The notes under the pieces are model-generated. The model made no database searches and was not told the DNA's origin. It was given only the letters and a program-made list of their open reading frames with translations. A stretch of DNA of 60,188 nt from Promethearchaeota archaeon (GTDB lineage Archaea > Asgardarchaeota > Lokiarchaeia > Sigyniarchaeales > SOKP01). Shown here piece by piece: positions 21,207 through 60,014 of this stretch. The stretch lies in the NCBI GenBank assembly GCA_016839765.1, contig JAEOTP010000077.1:1-60188 (forward strand), in the 5' to 3' direction. Within the stretch, counting starts at the first letter, position 1. The number at the start of each line of letters is the position of its first letter. The position numbers and the translations under genes were made by a program.

Positions 21207-21307
21207 GCAGATGTAGCCTAGCTGGTAAGACGCCGGCCTCGAGTGGTTAAATCACCAAGAGAGCCGGTGCGCGTAAGCGCACGAGGGTTCGAGTCCCTCC
21301 ATCTGCG
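21207..21307 (+). tRNA. tRNA-Ser(CGA) with 18-nt intron at 37/38 (21244-21261)
   Basis: Acceptor GCAGATG/CATCTGC, discriminator G; anticodon stem CCGGC/GCCGG with CT-CGA-G; long variable arm TGCGC-GTAA-GCGCA; T arm GAGGG-TTCGAGT-CCCTC; CCA not encoded. Confidence 0.93.
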
Positions 21308-21328
21308 TTAATTTGTTTTGATGATAGG

Positions 21329-22405
21329 GTGATAATTATAGGAAAGAAAAATTTGATTGTTTTAGGAGAATTACATCAAGATTTGTATTATGAAAGTGTT
21401 TTTTATGAACAATTAGTAGAGAAAATTGTAGCTAATTTATTGAATTTTACTAAATATAATCCAGATGATTTAAATACAAAAGTTTTAGAAAAAATTGTAA
21501 AGAGAGGCTTTTCAGAAACGTCAAAAAAAATTGTAGGACATTGTTTTTTCAAACGCGGAGGTAATGGTAATAACTCATCTGAGTACATCATAAAACTTGG
21601 AATACCCACAAGGTTGATCTCTGTTATTGGAAGAGGAAGTGAGTGGATGATTTCTGAACTGAATGAACAAGGAATTGATACACGCTATATATTTCAAATC
21701 GATGAAATCACTCCCGTAAGCACAATTATCAAATCGAACTTTACTACTAAAATTCACTTAGCTCCAAATTTAAAGAATAAAATGAATTTTGAGGGAATTT
21801 CTATTAATGAGACTGCTTTTAAAGATGGCAAAATAATACTTTCAACTCCTATAGCATACAAATTCATAAATTTATTTAAAAAAGCCTCAAAATTAGGATT
21901 AATAACCGCATTTAATATTGAAACACAAAAAATTCAAAACCTTGAGCAATTAACTGAGCTGATTCAAGAGAAACAGGATATTTTCTTCTTAAATTTAAGA
22001 GATGCTTATTTCATTCTAGATAATAAACTCCCCATAGATGAAATTGATCAAAATTTTGAAAAATTCGCTAAAATTAGAATTTATACTGCAGGGAAGGATG
22101 GATCTTATGTAAAAACAGATAATTTTACTATTGCTTTTCCAGGCATAGAAGTTTCTGCAATCATCGATAGAACAGGAGCCGGAGATTGCTATGCTGCAGG
22201 ATTTTTATCTAAGCTATATGAATTAGTAGAAAATAAAAAGGCATTAGAAGGTTTAATCACATCAAATAATTCATCAAAATTAAAGGAAATCTTGCAGAAA
22301 TGTACAAAGTATGCTACTTTTGCTGCTATCTATAAAATTACAAAACAAACAGCTCCAGTTAAAGAGGAAATGGAAAATTTTATCCAAAAATTTAAATTTA
22401 CATAA
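21329..22405 (+). CDS. PfkB/ribokinase-family carbohydrate kinase
   Basis: GGNGNN, YTAGKDGS, IDRTGAGDCYAAGFL. Confidence 0.88.
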   Translation: MIIIGKKNLIVLGELHQDLYYESVFYEQLVEKIVANLLNFTKYNPDDLNTKVLEKIVKRGFSETSKKIVGHCFFKRGGNGNNSSEYIIKLGIPTRLISVIGRGSEWMISELNEQGIDTRYIFQIDEITPVSTIIKSNFTTKIHLAPNLKNKMNFEGISINETAFKDGKIILSTPIAYKFINLFKKASKLGLITAFNIETQKIQNLEQLTELIQEKQDIFFLNLRDAYFILDNKLPIDEIDQNFEKFAKIRIYTAGKDGSYVKTDNFTIAFPGIEVSAIIDRTGAGDCYAAGFLSKLYELVENKKALEGLITSNNSSKLKEILQKCTKYATFAAIYKITKQTAPVKEEMENFIQKFKFT

Positions 22406-29461: not shown

Positions 29462-30531
29462 GCAGATCTGAAATTTTTTTTAATTATTTATTTTTAATAT
29501 TTACTTTTTAGGAAGTTATTCCGAAAATTTTGTGTTTTTGGTTTTTAAATTCTTAATTAAACATTAATTCACTTCTTATTTTTACTATGAAAATAAATTA
29601 AATATAATAAGAATAAATTTCACTATTATTTCAAAGTATATTTTAGTAGATTATATTAATTGAAGGATAAAAAGCAGTTTGGTGATTTTATATGCCTCGC
29701 AAAGTTAGTTTAATGGAACTTGATGATCTAGAAAAACAACTAAGAGAACATAAAAGTGAATTAAGCCTTACTCAAGCCGATCTCAATTCAACTAAGGATG
29801 CTCTTGAAAAGGCAGTTAAAGAGCTTAATACAACTAAAGAGACAGTAGATAATACAAAATCTGAGTTGAAAGAGATAAAGACAGTATTGGATGATGAAAA
29901 AACTCTCAGTAAAGATAAAGATGATACCATCAGCAATTTGACCTCTGAAAAAGAAAACTTAAAATCTGATCTTATTAAAGCCAACTCTAAAGTAAGTGAG
30001 CTGGAAGAAAAATTATCTAAAGTAGAACCAGATTTAGAATCTGCTAATTCAAGAATTTCTGATTTAGAAACTCAATTAACTGAGGCTCAAAATAGTTTAG
30101 CATCGAGTAAAGATCAAATTAGTAATTTAACTTCAGAAGTTCAAGAAATTCAAGAATTAAATTCTAAACTCACAAGACTTCAAGAAGAAAATAATGATTT
30201 AAACGGACAAATAGGTGAATTAAATAATCTTATACTCAAAAAAGATAATCAAATTCAAGAACTTTCAAGTAGTCTGGAAGAAAAGGATAAATTAGTTCAA
30301 GCTCAAATTGCTCATATAGAAGAAATCGAAGGTGAACTTCAAGAATTGAAACCACCTGAAATTGGTGCGGGAGAATTTGTTAGCGAGGAAAGGATTACTT
30401 GTCCGATGTGCGGAGCAGTTGGTGGGAATATTAAGAATATTGAAGATAAGTCAAAAATCTTATCCTATGTAGGCCACATCCCAATGTACGCGAAGAAGCA
30501 CGTTTGTAAAAAATGTGGCTACGAATTCTGA
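28673..30531 (+). repeat. Direct tandem gene duplication (about 28673-29461 vs 29722-30531)
   Basis: Long identical DNA blocks, e.g. gatgataccatcagcaatttgacctctgaaaaagaaaa and tagcgaggaaaggattacttgtccgatgtgcggagcagttgg, in both copies. Confidence 0.9.
29692..30531 (+). CDS. Long coiled-coil protein with C-terminal Zn ribbon (copy B)
   Basis: Near-colinear paralog of copy A with a different N-terminus; GGTGA SD. Confidence 0.85.
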   Translation: MPRKVSLMELDDLEKQLREHKSELSLTQADLNSTKDALEKAVKELNTTKETVDNTKSELKEIKTVLDDEKTLSKDKDDTISNLTSEKENLKSDLIKANSKVSELEEKLSKVEPDLESANSRISDLETQLTEAQNSLASSKDQISNLTSEVQEIQELNSKLTRLQEENNDLNGQIGELNNLILKKDNQIQELSSSLEEKDKLVQAQIAHIEEIEGELQELKPPEIGAGEFVSEERITCPMCGAVGGNIKNIEDKSKILSYVGHIPMYAKKHVCKKCGYEF

Positions 30532-50762: not shown

Positions 50763-51197
50763 TTACTTTCGTAAAGGGCCCAATTCCTTTATTTCACTAG
50801 TAAAATCAGTGATTACCTTGGCAAACCTTTTTCCTTCGGAAGCACTTACCCATTCTAACTTGACGCGTTTTTCATTAACACCTAACTGCTTTATAATTAT
50901 GTTATACAACCTTTCAAAACGGTCTCTTGTATATTCATTTCCAGAGATGTAATGGCAATCACCAATATGGCATCCACTAATAAGAACACCATCAGCACGA
51001 TTTTTTAAAGCCCTTAGGACAAAAGCAGGATCCACTCTTCCAGAGCACATAACTCTTATTATTCTAACATTTGGTGGATATTGGAATCTAGAAACTCCTG
51101 CTAAATCAGCCCCAGCATAACTACACCAATTACAACAAAAAACCAAAATATAGGGCTCAAAATCTTCCTTCTCAACTTGTGATACTGCTTTTGTCAT
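50763..51197 (-). CDS. mvhD: Hydrogenase/Hdr-associated [2Fe-2S] subunit, Cys form
   Basis: FCCNWCSYAGADLAG, RVMCSGRVD, GCHIGDCHY, WVSASEG. Confidence 0.95.
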   Translation of the reverse strand: MTKAVSQVEKEDFEPYILVFCCNWCSYAGADLAGVSRFQYPPNVRIIRVMCSGRVDPAFVLRALKNRADGVLISGCHIGDCHYISGNEYTRDRFERLYNIIIKQLGVNEKRVKLEWVSASEGKRFAKVITDFTSEIKELGPLRK

Positions 51198-51198
51198 T

Positions 51199-54100
51199 TT
51201 ATAATTCCTCTAACGATTTAGTTTTCTCTAGCAAATATGAATCTATCATCACACCTATTTGGTCAAAATCATAATGCTTTACAGATATTGCACCGACTGG
51301 ACAGGTGGCAGCGCAAGTCCCACAACCTTTGCATAATGCCGAATTTATATATGATTGCTTTATATTCAAATCCAAATCTTCAAATTCCATTTTAGTATCC
51401 AAAAGCTCAATAGCATTATAAGGACAAGTTTCTACACATTTTCCACATCCAATACATTTATCTGGATTAACTTCAGATATTAAACCGGAAGTCTTAATCT
51501 GTTTTGCGCTTAAAAATCGACTAGCTCTACCAGCTGCACCACTTGCTTGTGAAATTGAATCCTGAATATTTTTCGGCCATTGGGCGCATCCACACAAGAA
51601 GATGCCATCAGTTGCAAAATCTAAAGGTCTTAATTTGACATGCGCTTCCAAGAAAAAACCGTTTTTGTCTATTGGTACTTTTAACATTTTTGCTAATTCT
51701 TCTAAATTATCTGCTGGAATCATTGGAGTTGATAATATTATTAAATCGGTTTGAAATTCTATTTCCTCTTGAAGATTCGTGTCAAAAACCTTTATTTCGT
51801 AATTTTCTCTGGCTCCCCTTTTTCTAGTAATTTCTGGTATATTAGTTAAATCATATCTCAAAAAAATTGCATCTTTTCTTCTTTGGCGATAATAATCTTC
51901 GAACTCCTTCTTAGCCATTTGCAAATCTCTATATAATACCGTAATTTCAAGTTCAGGCTTGATTTCTTTAAGTATATTAATATTCTTAATTGCTGTTGCA
52001 CAACAAATATTTGAGCAATAGGTAATCCCTTCTTTTTGTCTTGAATTCACACACAAAATGGTAGTTATTCGATTTATATTTTTTAACCATGCACCATTTT
52101 GATCTTTTAATTTTTGTTCTAGTTCTAGTTGAGTTATGACATTTTGATTTTTACCGTTATATTGGAATAAACCATTTGGTTTTAATTCCTTCCCTCCAGT
52201 AGCAACTATTATTGTACCAACTTTAAAATCATGAATTACTTTTTCTTTATCGCCTACAGCAATATCATAATTTCCTATGTAACCCTTAATATTCTCAAGT
52301 TTAGATTCTAAGAAAATTTTGATATTTTTATTCTTTTTTACTTTTTCAATTATTTCATTTAGAAAAATTGATCCTTTTTCTTGAATTGGAGATAGAATGT
52401 TAAGATAATTTAGAATACCTCCTAATTTATTCTCTGTTTCTACGAGGTATGTTTCAAATCCTTGTTCTGCGATGTTTAGCGCGGCACTCATTCCTGCAAC
52501 CCCTCCACCAATGACTAATGCTGAGGGAATAATATTAAGGGTTTCTTCTTTTTGTGGCTTTAAGAGTCTGGCTTTCGCTACAGCCATTTTTACAAGGTCT
52601 ATAGATTTTTCGGTAGCTGCTTCCCTCTCTGTCATATGAACCCAAGAACATTGATCTCGAATATTAACCATTTCAAAAAGATATTTGTTTAATCCTGCCT
52701 CTTGACAAGTAACCTGAAACAAGGTTTCATGTGTTCTAGGAGTGCACGAAGCTACTATGAACCTATTTAAATCATTTTCTTTAATAACTTCCTTTATTCT
52801 TTCCTGAGAATCACTAGAACATGAATATAAATTTGCTTCACAGTGAACTACATTTGGTAATTTTTTAATTTCTTCAACAACGTCTGGAACATCTACATAT
52901 TTTCCAATATTAATCCCACAATGACAAATTAAAACTCCAATTCTCGATTCTTCAGATGTTTTTACTTCCTTTTCTGGTTCTTCAAACTCCTTTTCTTTGA
53001 TCTGGGTAAATTTAACTGAGTTTAATAATGTTGCAACTTGTGATGCTACACCACTCGCATCTGCTACAGTCTCAGGGATATCCATTGGACCTTGACAAAA
53101 ACCGCATAAAAATATACCATCTTTTGAAGATTGTAATTTATTAAAGTAAGAACGTTCCTTGAAAAAATTATATTGATCAAGTTCAATCCCTAAAATCTCT
53201 GCTAATTCGTTTGTGCCTCTTGATGCTACTAAGGGTGATGCTAATACTACTAAATTTGCTTTAAAATCTTTAAATTCTCCAGTTTTTAAATCCTCATAAT
53301 GTATAAGTAAATCATTAGTTTCAGGATCTTCCCTAATTTGACTGATCTTCGTTTGGTAGTATTTTACTCCATATTCTTGCTGAGCCCGCTGAGTGAATTC
53401 ATAAAAATTCTTACCATAAGCTCTAATATCGTGTCTAAATACATAGCATTCTGATTTCTCGGAATGTTCTTTTGTTATAATTGCTTCTTTTGCTGTATAT
53501 GTACAACATACACTTGAACAATACGGTACTCCCTCATGTAAATCTCTTGAACCAGCACATTGAATAAAAGCAATTTTTTCAGGTTCTTCATGATCACTTG
53601 GTCTTAAGACATGTCCCCCGAAAGGTCCTGAAGCACATAAAATTCTCTCATATTCAAGAGCACTTACTACATTTTCATATTGGTACCCCCATCTTAAAGA
53701 TAATTTTTCAGCAGGCATCTCAAAACCAGTTGCTACTACAATAGCTCCTATATTGAGTTGAATATCTTGAGGTTTTTGTTCATAATCAATTGCTTCAGCT
53801 TCACAAACTTTTTCACAAACTCCACATACTCCTTTTGTTAATTTCAAACACAACTTAGGATCAATTAAATAGACGGGAGGGACTGCTTGAGGGAAGGGTA
53901 TATAAATGGATTTTCTTTTCCCTAGATTCATATCAAATAAGTTTGGAACTTCAATTTTTGGGCATTTTGTAGCACAATCTCCACAGCCTTTGCATTTTGT
54001 TTCATCAATATAGCGTGGCTTTTTAAGAATTGTGATAGTAAAATCTCCTGCCGCTCCAGTAATTTCTTTAACTTCGTGATAAGTTAATAATTCAATATTA

Positions 54101-54306
54101 GGATTTCTAAAAACCTCGACCATTTTAGGTGCGAGAATACATAAACTGCAATCATTTGTAGGGAATGTCTTATCAAGTTGAGCCATTCGGCCTCCAATTG
54201 AGGGAGTCCTTTCAACTAAAAATACTTTATAACCTAATTCGGTCAAATCTAAAGAACATTGGATACCAGCAATTCCTCCACCAATTACTAATACAGATCC
54301 TTCCAT
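51199..54306 (-). CDS. hdrA: Large two-FAD-module heterodisulfide reductase subunit A, Cys form
   Basis: 1035 aa; two GGGxAG FAD motifs, LDKTFPTNDCSLC, CSSVCC, internal CHCGINI domain, several 4Fe-4S motifs. Confidence 0.92.
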   Translation of the reverse strand: MEGSVLVIGGGIAGIQCSLDLTELGYKVFLVERTPSIGGRMAQLDKTFPTNDCSLCILAPKMVEVFRNPNIELLTYHEVKEITGAAGDFTITILKKPRYIDETKCKGCGDCATKCPKIEVPNLFDMNLGKRKSIYIPFPQAVPPVYLIDPKLCLKLTKGVCGVCEKVCEAEAIDYEQKPQDIQLNIGAIVVATGFEMPAEKLSLRWGYQYENVVSALEYERILCASGPFGGHVLRPSDHEEPEKIAFIQCAGSRDLHEGVPYCSSVCCTYTAKEAIITKEHSEKSECYVFRHDIRAYGKNFYEFTQRAQQEYGVKYYQTKISQIREDPETNDLLIHYEDLKTGEFKDFKANLVVLASPLVASRGTNELAEILGIELDQYNFFKERSYFNKLQSSKDGIFLCGFCQGPMDIPETVADASGVASQVATLLNSVKFTQIKEKEFEEPEKEVKTSEESRIGVLICHCGINIGKYVDVPDVVEEIKKLPNVVHCEANLYSCSSDSQERIKEVIKENDLNRFIVASCTPRTHETLFQVTCQEAGLNKYLFEMVNIRDQCSWVHMTEREAATEKSIDLVKMAVAKARLLKPQKEETLNIIPSALVIGGGVAGMSAALNIAEQGFETYLVETENKLGGILNYLNILSPIQEKGSIFLNEIIEKVKKNKNIKIFLESKLENIKGYIGNYDIAVGDKEKVIHDFKVGTIIVATGGKELKPNGLFQYNGKNQNVITQLELEQKLKDQNGAWLKNINRITTILCVNSRQKEGITYCSNICCATAIKNINILKEIKPELEITVLYRDLQMAKKEFEDYYRQRRKDAIFLRYDLTNIPEITRKRGARENYEIKVFDTNLQEEIEFQTDLIILSTPMIPADNLEELAKMLKVPIDKNGFFLEAHVKLRPLDFATDGIFLCGCAQWPKNIQDSISQASGAAGRASRFLSAKQIKTSGLISEVNPDKCIGCGKCVETCPYNAIELLDTKMEFEDLDLNIKQSYINSALCKGCGTCAATCPVGAISVKHYDFDQIGVMIDSYLLEKTKSLEEL

Positions 54307-55586
54307 TATGATTTAACTTCTCCATTATTTTCTGAATCAATTACATGAATTAAATTTACTAAAAACTCAGAAAAATCTTTAATTTCTATAGAAGATAAAT
54401 CGTCATAATCCTTTTGAAGGCACGAGAGGTGCATAATACATTTTGGACACGATGTAACCAAAGTTGTACCTGCTTCTTTAGCTTCTAAAAGACGACTATA
54501 TCTTAGAGCTTTGGATCGCGTATTACAATTCATCCATGAACTAACACCGCAACATAATGCATTCTCTTTATTGTGTGTCATTTCTTTGAAAGAATAACCT
54601 AATCCCTCTAAAATGTTAAAAATTTCCCTTAATTTTTCTAAAAGGTTATTAGATTTTGGTAAAAATCTGCTCAACCTGCAAGGATCGTGATAAGTAAACT
54701 GAATATTAATATCGCTTTCATCTGGAGCTTTTAACTCTACTTTGCCTTGTTTTAACTTTTCATATACGTACTCAATTATATGTTTCACTTCAAATTTTTT
54801 ATCAAAATCTTCAAATAGTTTTGGATACTCCACTTTAAAAGTCCTATAACCTTCTGCGCAAGATGTAATAATTGTTGAAACGCTGGACTTTTCAAATAAG
54901 TCATAATTTTTCTTTGCTAATTTGATAAAAGCCTCAAAATTCCCTAATCCCCAGTATAAGTCGTGTCCACAACAGACCTCATCTTTAAGAACAACTATTG
55001 GACGATTCTCAATTTGACACATTATTTTAAGTGAGCTTATGGGAATTGGATCTACTTCTTGGAATTCAAATTTAAAATATGGTATGCAACCTACGAAATA
55101 TAGAATATCCCCTTTATCTGAAATTTTACATTCTTTTGGGACCCAATCAAGATTTTTATTCGGTTGGATATAAGGCTCGCTCAATATTTCTGATATAGTA
55201 GTATAAATACCTTTATGTGCAACGAATTGCTCTGGGTTTTGTTTATAATAATTTTTCATTTTATATTTTGCATTTCTTACAATATCAGCAAAATTTATAT
55301 CTTCGGGGCAATTTTGAAGGCAGCTATTGCATGTTAAACAATCCCATAAAACCCCACTACTGATTACTTTATCTTCAGACCCTTCTAATATTCTTTGAAT
55401 AATTACGCTAGGTACAAAACTTTGAACTTTACTAAGTTGGCATACGCCGCTACAACGAACACATTGATAACATTTACTCAATAGTTTTCTTAAATTTGGT
55501 TCGTAAATCTTGTCTAGATATAACTCTGAATCCTCTATGGATTGTTCAGAATTATCTTTTTGATTGATTTCTGTTATAAGCTTCAC
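54306..55586 (-). CDS. HdrD/GlpC-like Fe-S oxidoreductase (ferredoxin + CCG domains)
   Basis: CYQCVRCSGVC, CLTCNSCLQNCP, CCG, YHDPCRL, CCG, TSCPKC; stop overlaps the hdrA ATG. Confidence 0.88.
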   Translation of the reverse strand: MKLITEINQKDNSEQSIEDSELYLDKIYEPNLRKLLSKCYQCVRCSGVCQLSKVQSFVPSVIIQRILEGSEDKVISSGVLWDCLTCNSCLQNCPEDINFADIVRNAKYKMKNYYKQNPEQFVAHKGIYTTISEILSEPYIQPNKNLDWVPKECKISDKGDILYFVGCIPYFKFEFQEVDPIPISSLKIMCQIENRPIVVLKDEVCCGHDLYWGLGNFEAFIKLAKKNYDLFEKSSVSTIITSCAEGYRTFKVEYPKLFEDFDKKFEVKHIIEYVYEKLKQGKVELKAPDESDINIQFTYHDPCRLSRFLPKSNNLLEKLREIFNILEGLGYSFKEMTHNKENALCCGVSSWMNCNTRSKALRYSRLLEAKEAGTTLVTSCPKCIMHLSCLQKDYDDLSSIEIKDFSEFLVNLIHVIDSENNGEVKS

Positions 55587-55724
55587 TAAAATATTTTAAT
55601 TCTTACTTCATATTATATTGAATCACTTTGAATATGATAAAAAGGGAATGAATTTATTTTTTCTGATTAGTTTTAATAATGGTAGTTCGGTATGAAAATA
55701 AATGTAATAAGCGCAGAGTTCTAG

Positions 55725-55777
55725 GGAAAATTTTAATATAGAGAGTACTGAGCTCTATTATTAAATATTTCTTTTCC
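55725..55777. promoter_or_regulatory. Imperfect inverted repeat in the divergent hdr intergenic region
   Basis: TTTAATA-TAGAG (55732-55743) / CTCTA-t-TATTAAA (55753-55765), flanked by GGAAAA/TTTTCC. Confidence 0.4.
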
Positions 55778-55971
55778 ATTGTTGTCATCATTAAAAAATT
55801 AAAAACCAATAGGAAAAATTGTAGTTTTAAGAGTTTTTCTTATTTAATATTGGAATTATATAGTCTAATCAGAAAGAATAAATTATTTCCTTTTTTTACT
55901 TAATCATTATATTTAAATCGTTAAATTTAAAACCAAATAAATCAAGGTGAAAGAATACAAGGGTGACATAA

Positions 55972-57969
55972 ATGTCTGATAAGCAGACCATTGTTAGAAT
56001 AGGCGTTTATGTATGCAGGTGAGGAGTAAATATTGGAGCTACGGTAGATTGTGATGCTGTGAAAGATGCTGTTGAACATCTCTCAAATGTCGCAATTACT
56101 AGAGTAAATGACTTTACTTGTAGTGATCCTGGACAGAAAATCATCAAAAATGATATTTTAGAGTTAGATTTAAATCGCATTGTTGTTGCTGCTTGTACTC
56201 CAAAAATTCATGAATCCACTTATCGTGCTGTCTTAATTGAAGCTGGATTAAGCCCTTATTATTTTCAGATGGTTAATTTACGTGAACATTGTTCATTTGT
56301 ACACGGAGATGACAAGAGAGGTGCCACTGAAAAGGCGATAAGACTAGTTATAGCAGGAATAAACCGTGTTCGTGAGTTAGAGAGTATTCCCCGGAAAGTT
56401 ATACCAGTAGAGAGGGCAGCTTTAGTAATTGGTGCTGGAATTGCTGGAATGAATGCTGCGTTAGATTTAGCAAACCAGGGAATAAATGTTTATTTAGTTG
56501 AAAAAGAACCTACTATTGGTGGAAAAATGGCACAATTAGATAGGATTTATCCAACGGATGATTGTGGAATATGAGTACTTGCTCCAATAATGGTTAATGC
56601 TTCGAAACAACCAAATATAAATTTATATACTTATAGCGATATCGTCGAATTTAGCGGAATTCCTGGTAATTATAAAGTTAAAATAAGAAAAAATCCTCGT
56701 TATATTGATGAAAGTAAGTGTACTGGTTGTGGCTTATGCACATCCAAATGTCCTATAAAAATACCCGATGAATTTAATAGAGGGATCGGTGATAGGTGTG
56801 CTGTTTACATTCCCTTCCCTCAAGCTGTACCAAAATATGCTGTAATTGACAAGTCTGTTTGTATTGACTGCAAAAACTGCCAAAGAATATGCCCAGCCGA
56901 AGCAGTTGATTTTGAACAAGAACCACAATATATTGATATAAATGTGGGAGCTGTAATAGTCGCTACAGGTTATGATGAATACCCAATTATCGAAACTAAT
57001 GAGTACAACTATGGATTATATCCTGATGTAATCACTCAAATAGAACTAGAACGGATGTTAAGTCCTATTGGTCCAACCGATGGTCATGTGTATAGAATTT
57101 CTAATGGAGAAATCCCAAATACGATTGTTATGATTCAATGTGTCGGTTCAAGATCAGTAAAAGAACTTCCCTATTGCTCTGGAGTGTGTTGCAATGTGGC
57201 TCTTAAAAATGCACAATTATTAAAGCAAGAGTATCCTGACATGGATGTTGTTTTGTTTTACATTGATATTAGGACAACAGATAAAGGAAACGAGGAATAT
57301 TATAGAAGAATAAGAGATACGGGGATTAGAATGATTCGAGGAAAAGTCGGAGAAGTATTGGAAGACCCTGAAACGAAAATGCTAAAAATTCGGGCATTTT
57401 CATCTTTAACAGGTGATATTATTAAACTTAACGCTGATTTAGTTGTATTGTCTACAGGTATGATACCTTCAAAAGGTACTATTGAAATTATAGACTTAAT
57501 GGGTTTAGCTAAAGGTCCAAATGGATTTTTAACTGAAATTCATGGATGTCTAAGCCCTCAAGAAACGAATAATATGGGAATTTATATTTGTGGGGCTGCA
57601 GCTGGACCAAAGAACATCCCTTATTCCGTATCAACAGCTTTAGCGGCAGCAAGCAAGGCTGCTACTCTGCTATCGCACGATACTATAAACCAAGAATTAT
57701 TGATTGCAGAAGTGAAAGAAGAACTTTGTATGGGATGCCATAGATGTGAAAAATTGTGTTATTATGAAGCAATAAAAGTAGGTGAAAACAATATTGCAAT
57801 TGTAGATGATTTAAAATGCAAAGGTTGTGGCGTGTGCGCTACATCGTGTCCCGCGAGAGCGATTGACCTAAAATACTATAGAGACAAACAATTCATCGAA
57901 GAAATTAAAGGAATCAGTAGTAGCGAAATTGAATCCATCCAAGAAGCACCAAAAATTGAGGAAGAGTAA
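55972..57969 (+). CDS. hdrA: Selenocysteine-containing heterodisulfide reductase subunit A (665 aa, Sec17 and Sec201)
   Basis: Single frame from ATG 55972 (SD GGGTGA) to TAA 57969; TGA at 56020-56022 (GVYVCR-U-GVNIG) and 56572-56574 (PTDDCGI-U-VLAP), both aligning with Cys in the paralog (CHCGINIG; PTNDCSLCILAP). Confidence 0.92.
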
Positions 57970-57990
57970 ATAATTTAGAGGTTAATTCAT

Positions 57991-58425
57991 ATGGTTGATT
58001 CAGAAAATAAGAATTTTAGAAAAATTATTGCTTTTGGATGCGATAAATGAGGTTATTCTGCTGCGGATTTAACTGGAACTACGAGAAAAACATACTCAAC
58101 TGATTTTCACTTAATTCGAGTTAGATGTACAGGAAGAGTTGGTATTCATTTAATTATGGAATGTTTTTTGAATGGTGCTGATGGAGTAGCTATTATATCA
58201 TGAAAAGAAGGAGAATGTGAATATGGTAGTGGTAACCTTAATACCTATGAGCATATTAAGCTCTTGAAACGGTTATTTAAACATCTAGGGATTTCCGAAA
58301 ACAGGATTCAACAATATTTCTGTTCAGCAGCAGAGGTGGAAAAATTCATCCAATCAGTAGAAGACATAACAACCAAAATTTATGAACTCCCACCTATACC
58401 TAAACAAAAACTTAATCCGAAGTAG
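57991..58425 (+). CDS. mvhD: Selenocysteine-containing MvhD/VhuD (144 aa, Sec20 and Sec71); absent from the ORF track
   Basis: MVDSENKNFRKIIAFGCDK-U-GYSAADLTG...RVRCTGRV...GADGVAIIS-U-KEGECEYGSGN...FCSAAE; TGA at 58048-58050 and 58201-58203 align with Cys of CNWC and GCHIGDC in the Cys paralog; SD GAGGT at 57978. Confidence 0.92.
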
Positions 58426-58486
58426 GATGATCCTACCAAAAAAATTATAGTTGGGAGGAAACTAACTCATAGCCTGAGCTTTCGGA
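58416..58486 (+). ncRNA. Structured RNA element: SECIS candidate or C/D-box-like K-turn RNA
   Basis: Closing stem TCCGAAGT/GCTTTCGGA encloses AGGATGA (58424-58430, includes ATGA), an A7 run, and CTGA (58474-58477); internal pairings TCCTACCAA/TTGGGAGGA or AGTTGG/CTAACT; lies right after the last Sec gene. Confidence 0.5.
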
Positions 58487-58520
58487 ATTAAAAATTAGAT
58501 TAATTATTAATATTATAAAG

Positions 58521-60014
58521 ATGGAATCAAAAGGAACTATTTCATGGAACTTTTTAAAGGATATAGCAGATACTTTAGATTCATATAGGATACGCCTCTT
58601 AATAGATGCTAAAAATGAAATTATTAGTTCTGCTATTTATGATGAAGAACAATATTATCAAATACTTCTTCAGATGATTGACGTAGAAAGAATGAAATAT
58701 TCCCTATTTAATTATTTAAATACCGAAGAAAATCACAATTTTAAATCCCTAAAACAATTTTCTAAACAAAATTCAATTGATATTAAAAAAACTCTAAGCT
58801 TTTTAGAGTTATTGAGAAATGAGAGACTAATCAAGGTAGAATATATTCATAACAATAATGATACTACTGAAGGAAATTCTAGCGATTTAACCATTAAGGA
58901 TTTATCAATTAGAAGTTTACAACTAATTCCTTCTGAAGTTAAATCTATCTACGAACCAGTAAAAGTTGTTTATGAGACTAACAATTGTTCTGGGTGTGGA
59001 TTGTGTGCTGGTATCTGTCCAGTTAATTGTATAAATATCTATAATGGGTTTGGAAAACTTGATGAAGATAAATGTATAAGATGCGGATTATGTTATTATT
59101 TTTGCCCAAGGACCTACTTACCTGTAAATTTATTAAATATGACCCAAAAAGATACTTCTAAATTAGAAAATTTTCCTAAAATAGGTTATTACCTAGAGGT
59201 ATATTCGGCTAGATCTAAAATAAAGGAAATCTCTAAAGTATGTCAAGATGGTGGAATTTCAAGTACGTGTCTCTATTTTTTGTTTGAAAGAAATGAGATA
59301 GATATTGCATTGGGAGCAAAAATGAGTCGAACTCCGTGGCGACCAGAACCAATATTAATTAAAAATAAAGAAGATATATTGAAAACTGCCGGAACAAAAT
59401 ATGTAAATAATCCTACTCTCAGCTTGTTAAATGAATTGAATAAAAATTCCAGCAAAATAGCTGTTGTTGGAGTTCCTTGTATGATGCAAGCTTTATTAAA
59501 ATCAGAAATTTATAATATCGGAATCCCCTCATTAAATCAGGTAGAATATAGAATCGGTATTTTTTGCATGGAATCATTTTCTTATGAATCCCTATTAAAA
59601 ATCTGCGAAACTTTAAGTGTAGATATTAACAATGTCCGGAAAACTGATATTAATAAAGGTAAATTTTTTGTATATACTCATAAGGGAGAAGATTTATCAA
59701 TTCCAATTAAAGAAATATCTCATTTAGCAAGAGAAGATTGTGAGATTTGCTTTGATTTAACTTCTGAGTCGGCTGACATATCAATTGGTTCAATTGGAGC
59801 ACCATCAGGTTGGAATACTGTTATAGTACGAACACCAAAAGGAAAACAATTATTTGATGGATTGGTAAAAAATAATTTGATTGAATTTAAAAAGATTACA
59901 GAAGTTCAACCCGGATTACCAATGGTTGAAAAAATTGCCAATTCAAAGAGAAATAAGTGCTCTAAACATATCGCTAAAAAAGAAGGCGAAAACAAGAGAA
60001 CTCCTAATTATTAA
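58521..60014 (+). CDS. FrhB/FdhB-family F420-interacting subunit with ferredoxin and an N-terminal helical/HTH extension
   Basis: CSGCGLCAGICP, CIRCGLCYYFCP, QDGG, AGTKY, VGVPCM, IGIFCMESF, CEICFD, ADISIGSIG. Confidence 0.88.
   Translation: MESKGTISWNFLKDIADTLDSYRIRLLIDAKNEIISSAIYDEEQYYQILLQMIDVERMKYSLFNYLNTEENHNFKSLKQFSKQNSIDIKKTLSFLELLRNERLIKVEYIHNNNDTTEGNSSDLTIKDLSIRSLQLIPSEVKSIYEPVKVVYETNNCSGCGLCAGICPVNCINIYNGFGKLDEDKCIRCGLCYYFCPRTYLPVNLLNMTQKDTSKLENFPKIGYYLEVYSARSKIKEISKVCQDGGISSTCLYFLFERNEIDIALGAKMSRTPWRPEPILIKNKEDILKTAGTKYVNNPTLSLLNELNKNSSKIAVVGVPCMMQALLKSEIYNIGIPSLNQVEYRIGIFCMESFSYESLLKICETLSVDINNVRKTDINKGKFFVYTHKGEDLSIPIKEISHLAREDCEICFDLTSESADISIGSIGAPSGWNTVIVRTPKGKQLFDGLVKNNLIEFKKITEVQPGLPMVEKIANSKRNKCSKHIAKKEGENKRTPNY

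Follow-up and report, generated by a model that had tools for sequence, protein, structure and literature searches.

A lokiarchaeal hdrA-vhuD gene pair with four in-frame UGA codons and a single predicted SECIS element behind the second gene

The tandem gene pair hdrA and vhuD (mvhD) described here comes from a Promethearchaeota archaeon (GTDB lineage Archaea; Asgardarchaeota; Lokiarchaeia; Sigyniarchaeales; SOKP01; Promethearchaeota is the current NCBI phylum name). The window, by which we mean the whole stretch of DNA that was analysed, comprises 60,188 nucleotides (nt) of contig JAEOTP010000077.1 in assembly GCA_016839765.1 and is contig 59 of a 3.32 Mb assembly with 96 contigs and 30% G+C. 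Both genes contain in-frame UGA codons, four altogether, and a candidate selenocysteine insertion sequence (SECIS) element lies directly behind vhuD. A preliminary description, made from the letters alone, had proposed that one downstream element may recode all four codons, up to about 2.4 kb away. The pair and its element are laid out as follows.

55972..57969, + strand: hdrA, 665 codons ending in TAA, with TGA read as selenocysteine (Sec, U)
56020-56022: hdrA codon U17, in the N-terminal Cys-rich motif C-R-U-G
56572-56574: hdrA codon U201, the canonical HdrA Sec position, in the motif C-G-I-U
57970..57990, + strand: hdrA-vhuD spacer, 21 nt, with a GAGGU Shine-Dalgarno motif at 57978-57982
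57991..58425, + strand: vhuD/mvhD (FlpD family), 144 codons ending in TAG
58048-58050 and 58201-58203: vhuD Sec codons U20 and U71
58416..58486, + strand: candidate SECIS (lokiSECIS, Asgard type I eSECIS-like), 71 nt, in a proposed three-way junction fold

The preliminary description had seen hdrA as one frame broken only by TGA at 56020 and 56572 and an mvhD with TGA at 58048 and 58201, with neither gene ending in UGA, and the 665- and 144-codon frames with their TAA and TAG stops were recovered as it had them. Its assignment of both products to archaeal selenoprotein families was borne out by Pfam and by structural comparison. The hdrA product carries the Pfam domains Pyr_redox_2, FAD and Fer4 (FAD/NAD-binding and 4Fe-4S), and the vhuD product matches PF02662 (FlpD/MvhD) at 1.5e-37, with 128.8 bits against a cut-off of 22.3. 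The closest solved structure to HdrA is 9sfi_A (E 9e-219, residues 9-650), with 5odc_A at 6e-207; U201 aligns to X197 of 9sfi_A, which is a Sec, and U17 to its Cys13. Sec197 has been seen experimentally in the HdrA structure of Methanococcus maripaludis (PMC13518236). By sequence comparison, hdrA and vhuD are identified as the known archaeal selenoprotein families HdrA and VhuD.

Further comparison for the four UGA codons is provided within the window by a divergent unit that encodes Cys-type homologues and lacks a SECIS.

50763..55586, - strand: Cys-type divergent unit (hdrB/C-like gene, double HdrA-like protein, mvhD)
54306-55586, - strand: hdrB/C-like gene
51199-54306, - strand: double HdrA-like protein, 1035 aa
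50763-51197, - strand: Cys-type mvhD

Alignment placed U17 and U201 of HdrA opposite Cys of the 1035-aa protein, and U20 and U71 of VhuD opposite Cys of the Cys-type mvhD product, as had been claimed for all four sites. Conservation was assessed in the 27 closest vhuD loci from a species-level genome collection, all of them in metagenome-assembled genomes (MAGs) labelled Promethearchaeota/Promethearchaeia or with other Asgard names, and with up to 97% protein identity. TGA is kept at U20 in all 27 and at U71 in 26, and, counting the rows that cover those columns, at U17 in 19/19 and at U201 in 27/27; such conservation at four sites is far beyond chance. Across the related set HdrA has five Sec positions (17, 50, 75, 201 and 303). 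In one relative (L045) a Cys replaces the second vhuD Sec. In six others (L026, L029, L031, L038, L042 and L047, at about 980-1280) the hdrA frame free of TAA and TAG covers no more than about 565 codons ahead of the stop, and the initial ~100 codons, with the Sec17 site among them, fall outside it; possible explanations are a shorter HdrA, a frameshift and a separate gene.

An alternative is that the UGA codons do not encode Sec, and reflect instead pseudogenes, assembly or sequencing errors, genome-wide reassignment, or reading as Cys or Trp. Nothing specific speaks for this; some public calls of related selenoprotein genes show W for TGA, which arises only from translation with code 4. The four sites are TGA in independent MAGs, and U201 coincides with the Sec197 seen experimentally in M. 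maripaludis. UGA also terminates many ordinary genes, as the preliminary description had pointed out: it ends seven other window open reading frames (ORFs) of at least 150 codons, including those ending at 30531 and 34994, and, in the genome as a whole, 277 of the 2088 ORFs that reach 200 codons. Reassignment throughout the genome was ruled out by this stop-codon usage, and we regard the alternative as a whole as very improbable.

The Sec pathway is also encoded in the genome, where a search for tRNA-Sec, SepSecS, SelD and SelB found each of them. Contig 34 carries tRNA-Sec (62.1 bits, above the Rfam cut-off) adjoining SepSecS (474.9 bits), and SelD (185 bits) has one in-frame TGA of its own. 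The main part of SelB/EFSec (C75:2-1114) has as its best PDB match 4ac9, M. maripaludis SelB (7e-49), followed by human eEFSec. A 37-residue N-terminal SelB stub at C34:1-123 lies beside tRNA-Sec and SepSecS, which places the Sec machinery genes in a cluster. A 519-aa ORF on C67, considered as a SelB candidate, was rejected after NCBIfam identified it as aIF2-gamma.

The candidate SECIS begins with its AUGA 1 nt past the vhuD TAG, and its hairpin portion comprises the following parts.

58427-58430 opposite 58460-58461: kink-turn (K-turn) core, AUGA opposite AA
58431-58439 with 58451-58459: main helix, 9 bp, of which eight are standard pairs and one is a central A.G mismatch
58440-58450: apical loop, 11 nt, AAAAAUUAUAG

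From 58427 to 58461 the order is thus AUGA, UCCUACCAA, AAAAAUUAUAG, UUGGGAGGA and AA. The lokiSECIS has been defined as an AUGA abutting a 9-bp stem, an 11-nt loop in which the first five nucleotides are mostly A and which ends in AG, and then GA or AA (PMC4989117), and the AUGA_AA core variant has been reported for hdrA/frhD of Lokiarchaeia (PMC11227280). As far as its sequence goes, the window element has every published lokiSECIS feature. A strict lokiSECIS pattern matched 11 times in the 3.32 Mb, once in the window, and six of these matches stand behind ORFs with in-frame TGA whose products are recognisable or conserved, namely hdrA, a vhuU-like gene, two vhuD and two unknown genes.

The element is supported by an alignment of 27 copies, in which seven of the nine main-helix pairs have compensatory changes. 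Pairing occurs in 93% of cells and in no more than 64% once the partner is slid, and none of 500 shuffles reached the observed values. The two nucleotides after the stem are AA in 22 of the 27 elements and GA in five. A covariance model built from this alignment and searched with filters off gave the window SECIS 69.7 bits (E 2e-14), and no other match above 13 bits appeared in the 60-kb window, the best inside hdrA reaching 8.7 bits (E 8.4). All 27 related loci have one match each, always just behind vhuD, including L035, which lay outside the training set and gave a single match of 65.5 bits. Single-sequence minimum free energy (MFE) folding of the 3' spacer was not significant (z -0.39), and Rfam held no matching family, with four weak matches elsewhere in 55500-58700 far below gathering scores. 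MFE folding prefers a competing hairpin, and the element came to light only through comparative analysis. Five relatives (L026, L028, L036, L038 and L045) have a vhuD frame with no TAA or TAG before the SECIS, and their stop is the UGA within the AUGA core, as published for VhuU.1.

The central issue is whether this one element would act on both genes. Its AUGA core lies 2407, 1855, 379 and 226 nt from the four UGA codons. The 21-nt spacer between hdrA and vhuD is too short for a SECIS or a promoter, and in the 27 related loci the vhuD match starts 12-49 nt past the hdrA stop; the earlier argument that the gap leaves no room for an hdrA-specific 3' SECIS stands. Nor was any element found in or before hdrA. 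The hdrA stop is TAA in all 27 relatives, in the window copy and in the two other hdrA-vhuD pairs of the genome, and never TGA; that HdrA never ends in UGA has been explained by selection against a stop that would be read through (PMC4989117).

The hdrA paralogs of the genome allow the association to be followed further. Genes with in-frame TGA lie on contigs 59, 33, 43 and 35 (with 2, 2, 4 and 2 TGAs respectively), and several other hdrA genes are TGA-free. All four Sec-type hdrA units have one SECIS match at the 3' end, whereas none was found, again with filters off, in the four Cys-type units searched (contigs 13, 58 and 6, and the minus-strand unit of the window). The contig-33 paralog (G000:C33:15236-17324, L048) is 74% identical, has two Sec and has no vhuD behind it. 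Its SECIS stands 11 nt past the hdrA stop, and the last ~25 codons together with the SECIS align to the 3' end of vhuD, which indicates that vhuD was deleted and the signal kept for hdrA. Such retention fits a need of hdrA itself for the element in cis.

These observations bear directly on the possibility that the SECIS serves vhuD only and that the hdrA UGAs are recoded by another signal, located in the hdrA coding sequence or the 5' leader or acting in trans. A separate signal is favoured by the lack of any precedent, outside these archaea, for action over ~2.4 kb and past a cistron boundary (PMC4989117). Against it, the covariance model found no second match in the window or in the 27 related loci, Rfam was blank, and the solitary contig-33 hdrA has a SECIS directly behind it. 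A bacterial-type hairpin after each UGA was also sought: the z-scores were +0.33 and +0.29 for hdrA, neither significant, and +0.19 and -2.02 for vhuD, the last of them marginal and none convincing. We therefore consider a separate hdrA signal improbable. A single 3' element serving both cistrons is supported by computation, in agreement with the proposal made in the preliminary description.

Under this shared-element model, hdrA and vhuD would most likely be transcribed together, and their four UGAs would most likely be decoded by Sec-tRNA(Sec) brought by the archaeal SelB/EFSec. A single eukaryote-like K-turn SECIS after vhuD would direct the recoding, including that in the upstream cistron, and Sec would be inserted at all four sites.

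Several points weigh against this interpretation and should be set beside it. In the window copy the proposed fold has -13.4 kcal/mol against -18.6 for the MFE structure, in nearest-neighbour energies that leave out the K-turn pairs. The competing hairpin (58422-58436; GUAGGA / UGA / UCCUAC) takes up both the AUGA and the stop codon and is incompatible with the SECIS fold. The window copy and its five nearest relatives can form this hairpin, and we give it little weight because it is not conserved in more distant loci. The core itself is AUGA_AA instead of AUGA_GA, and the main helix holds a central A.G mismatch. On the side of the machinery, the SelB gene is broken by two contig ends, and the PSTK-like kinase (C67:160092-160856) has a full-length TIGR03574 match of 167 bits, below the NCBIfam cut-off of 290.5, although this is the best family for the protein. 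vhuD may have an internal promoter inside hdrA. Finally, a lokiarchaeal SECIS was inactive in M. maripaludis (PMC11881835). Taking these together with the evidence above, we judge it likely that the locus is an Asgard (Loki-type) Sec-encoding hdrA-vhuD pair in which four UGAs are decoded via one 3' SECIS.

In the window and in the related loci (L021-L047) conservation reaches past the published hairpin, running from some 10 nt ahead of each vhuD stop to 60 nt beyond it, and three further helices can be drawn around the K-turn.

58416-58421 with 58481-58486: basal helix, using the last vhuD codons
58423-58425 with 58462-58464: C-stem, the vhuD stop codon UAG paired with the invariant CUA of an ACUAAC motif
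58466-58469 with 58475-58478: third arm, a small hairpin between the C-stem and the basal helix

The pairing of the stop codon with CUA would supply the short C-stem that a K-turn requires. In the third arm, compensatory changes occur at all four pairs across the 27 loci. The basal helix hardly varies, its nucleotides being kept despite a change in the register of the C-terminal peptide (...NPK stop vs ...ISE stop), and the contig-33 paralog has a compensatory change there (CUGAA/UUCAG). The genome has seven SECIS elements, and the MFE folds of five, including those of the vhuU-like gene and of one unknown gene, show the three-arm layout. We did not find the third arm in the main texts of PMC4989117 or PMC11227280, or in a full-text literature search on archaeal SECIS three-way junctions, the 2016 supplement lying outside that search. 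The third arm is probably real, as a modest refinement and not a new kind of system.

Whether the recoding signal is, in place of a simple hairpin, a 71-nt K-junction made of a basal helix from the last vhuD codons, a C-stem from the vhuD stop codon and the covarying third arm is a more tentative proposal, which we put forward as possible while leaning somewhat towards the simpler form. If it holds, the signal would have to be melted by any ribosome that terminates on vhuD, and whether the SECIS is available to the upstream UGAs would depend on translation of the pair. The additional helices might then also let one element serve two cistrons, or bind an Asgard SECIS-binding factor.

An RNA of this shape at 58416-58486 might also be read as a box C/D small RNA (sRNA) or as a terminator hairpin. 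GGAUGA and CUGA, ~50 nt apart, and the K-turn-like look would suit a C/D RNA, but there is no RUGAUGA box C (no UGAUGA occurs), and CUGA is present only in the window copy and one relative, being AUGA, AUGG, CCGG and so on elsewhere among the 27 loci. CUGA is not conserved because it forms the 3' strand of the covarying third arm. Box C/D identity was rejected for want of a conserved box D. A terminator is opposed by the lack of any run of at least five T after the element, and both readings by its occurrence only behind UGA-containing genes; we attach hardly any probability to either, compared with a SECIS.

The gene that follows bears on where the SECIS would lie in the transcript.

58521..60014, + strand: FrhB/FdhB-like Fe-S protein gene, 497 codons, Pfam FrhB_FdhB_N and FrhB_FdhB_C

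It starts 34 nt past the SECIS in the window, and in 25 of the 27 related loci such a gene stands directly after vhuD on the same strand, ~35-60 nt past the SECIS. No T-run was present between the SECIS and this gene in the window or in the related loci. Given the position of the FrhB/FdhB-like gene right after it, the SECIS may be intercistronic, within a three-gene transcript, and not at the transcript end.

Searching the genome for SECIS elements also brought up other selenoprotein candidates. On contig 20 (G000:C20:10478-10871, L050:479-872) a 116-codon ORF has two consecutive in-frame TGAs (G-C-U-U) and a lokiSECIS 8 nt past its TAA. It has no Pfam match. Its 81 homologs are mostly metagenome calls, and all with an organism name are Asgard MAGs; most of the gene calls end at the TGAs, and full-length calls give WW. 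The 33 residues past the TGAs are conserved, and the family is absent from the seven listed in PMC11227280. A second gene, on contig 12 (G000:C12:3643-3881, L049:644-882), encodes a 63-codon single-pass membrane protein of no Pfam family, with an in-frame TGA in G-G-G-U-P-C and a stop formed by the UGA within the AUGA core, where a strong lokiSECIS scores 48 bits; this is possibly a small new selenoprotein. The third is a C-terminal piece of vhuU/hydrogenase large subunit on contig 46 (G000:C46:about 21300-21560, L051) with the motif D-C-U-L-S-C-A-A-H. Here too the stop is the UGA of the AUGA, and the SECIS, built around an AUGA_AA core, shows the three-arm layout.

The case is one more well-documented instance and introduces no new principle. 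Its practical value lies in annotation: gene callers still split or miss such genes in Asgard MAGs, so that hdrA and vhuD should be annotated with Sec, and a simple covariance model is enough to recover the selenoproteome of a genome of this kind. If one element does recode UGAs of two cistrons over as much as 2.4 kb, that would be without parallel in biology; after ten years the case for it is purely computational. The vhuD-deletion paralog that keeps its SECIS, together with the association of the element with Sec-type and not Cys-type units, provides concrete constructs for a first experimental test.

Among known systems, HdrA (Sec197) and VhuD (two Sec) of Methanococcales and Methanopyrus are orthologous to the proteins described here, with equal Sec positions and neighbouring genes (PMC13518236), and the methanogen VhuD SECIS also has AUGA and an AAC/GAC motif. 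The methanogens differ in having one-Sec HdrA and an archaeal SECIS of the GAA_A-bulge type, whereas the window element is eukaryote-like and apparently shared. With eukaryotic type I SECIS elements, such as that of SelenoP, it has in common the K-turn core (AUGA ... GA/AA) and the A-rich apical loop; action from a distant 3' position on several UGAs is a property of the eukaryotic elements that is proposed here for the window element. The eukaryotic elements differ in their monocistronic mRNA, longer helix II and binding of SBP2, a protein not detected in Loki (PMC4989117), whereas the window element would serve two cistrons; SelenoP moreover has two SECIS elements and the window one. The k-junction RNAs (Wang et al. 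2014, as cited in PMC11227280) resemble the proposed fold, at the level of drawn secondary structure, in that the K-turn has a G.A/A.A core and, next to a very short C-stem, the non-bulged strand carries an inserted third helix.

The closest counterpart is the HdrA-VhuD pair of Lokiarchaeota, for which multi-Sec selenoproteins had been mentioned in the preliminary description and are indeed published. There the two genes invariably form a tandem in which only a very short spacer separates them; Sec can occupy five positions in HdrA, a multi-Sec protein, and VhuD has two Sec (PMC4989117). That the pair shares a single lokiSECIS was the conclusion of Mariotti et al. in 2016 (PMC4989117), repeated by Huang et al. 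in 2024, who extended the survey to 227 Sec-using Asgard genomes (PMC11227280). The window pair differs in having 2+2 Sec against up to six published, and in a purine-purine mismatch in mid-stem; it also adds the conserved basal helix, the stop-codon C-stem and the third arm, which are absent from the main texts of those papers. It agrees with them in gene order, short spacer, a multi-Sec HdrA that includes the canonical position, a two-Sec VhuD and a non-UGA HdrA stop, and in the single element of AUGA, 9-bp stem and 11-nt A-rich loop right after the vhuD stop. The arrangement described here was thus already published in 2016 and 2024, and the inference drawn from the letters of the window is supported by the computation, although not new.

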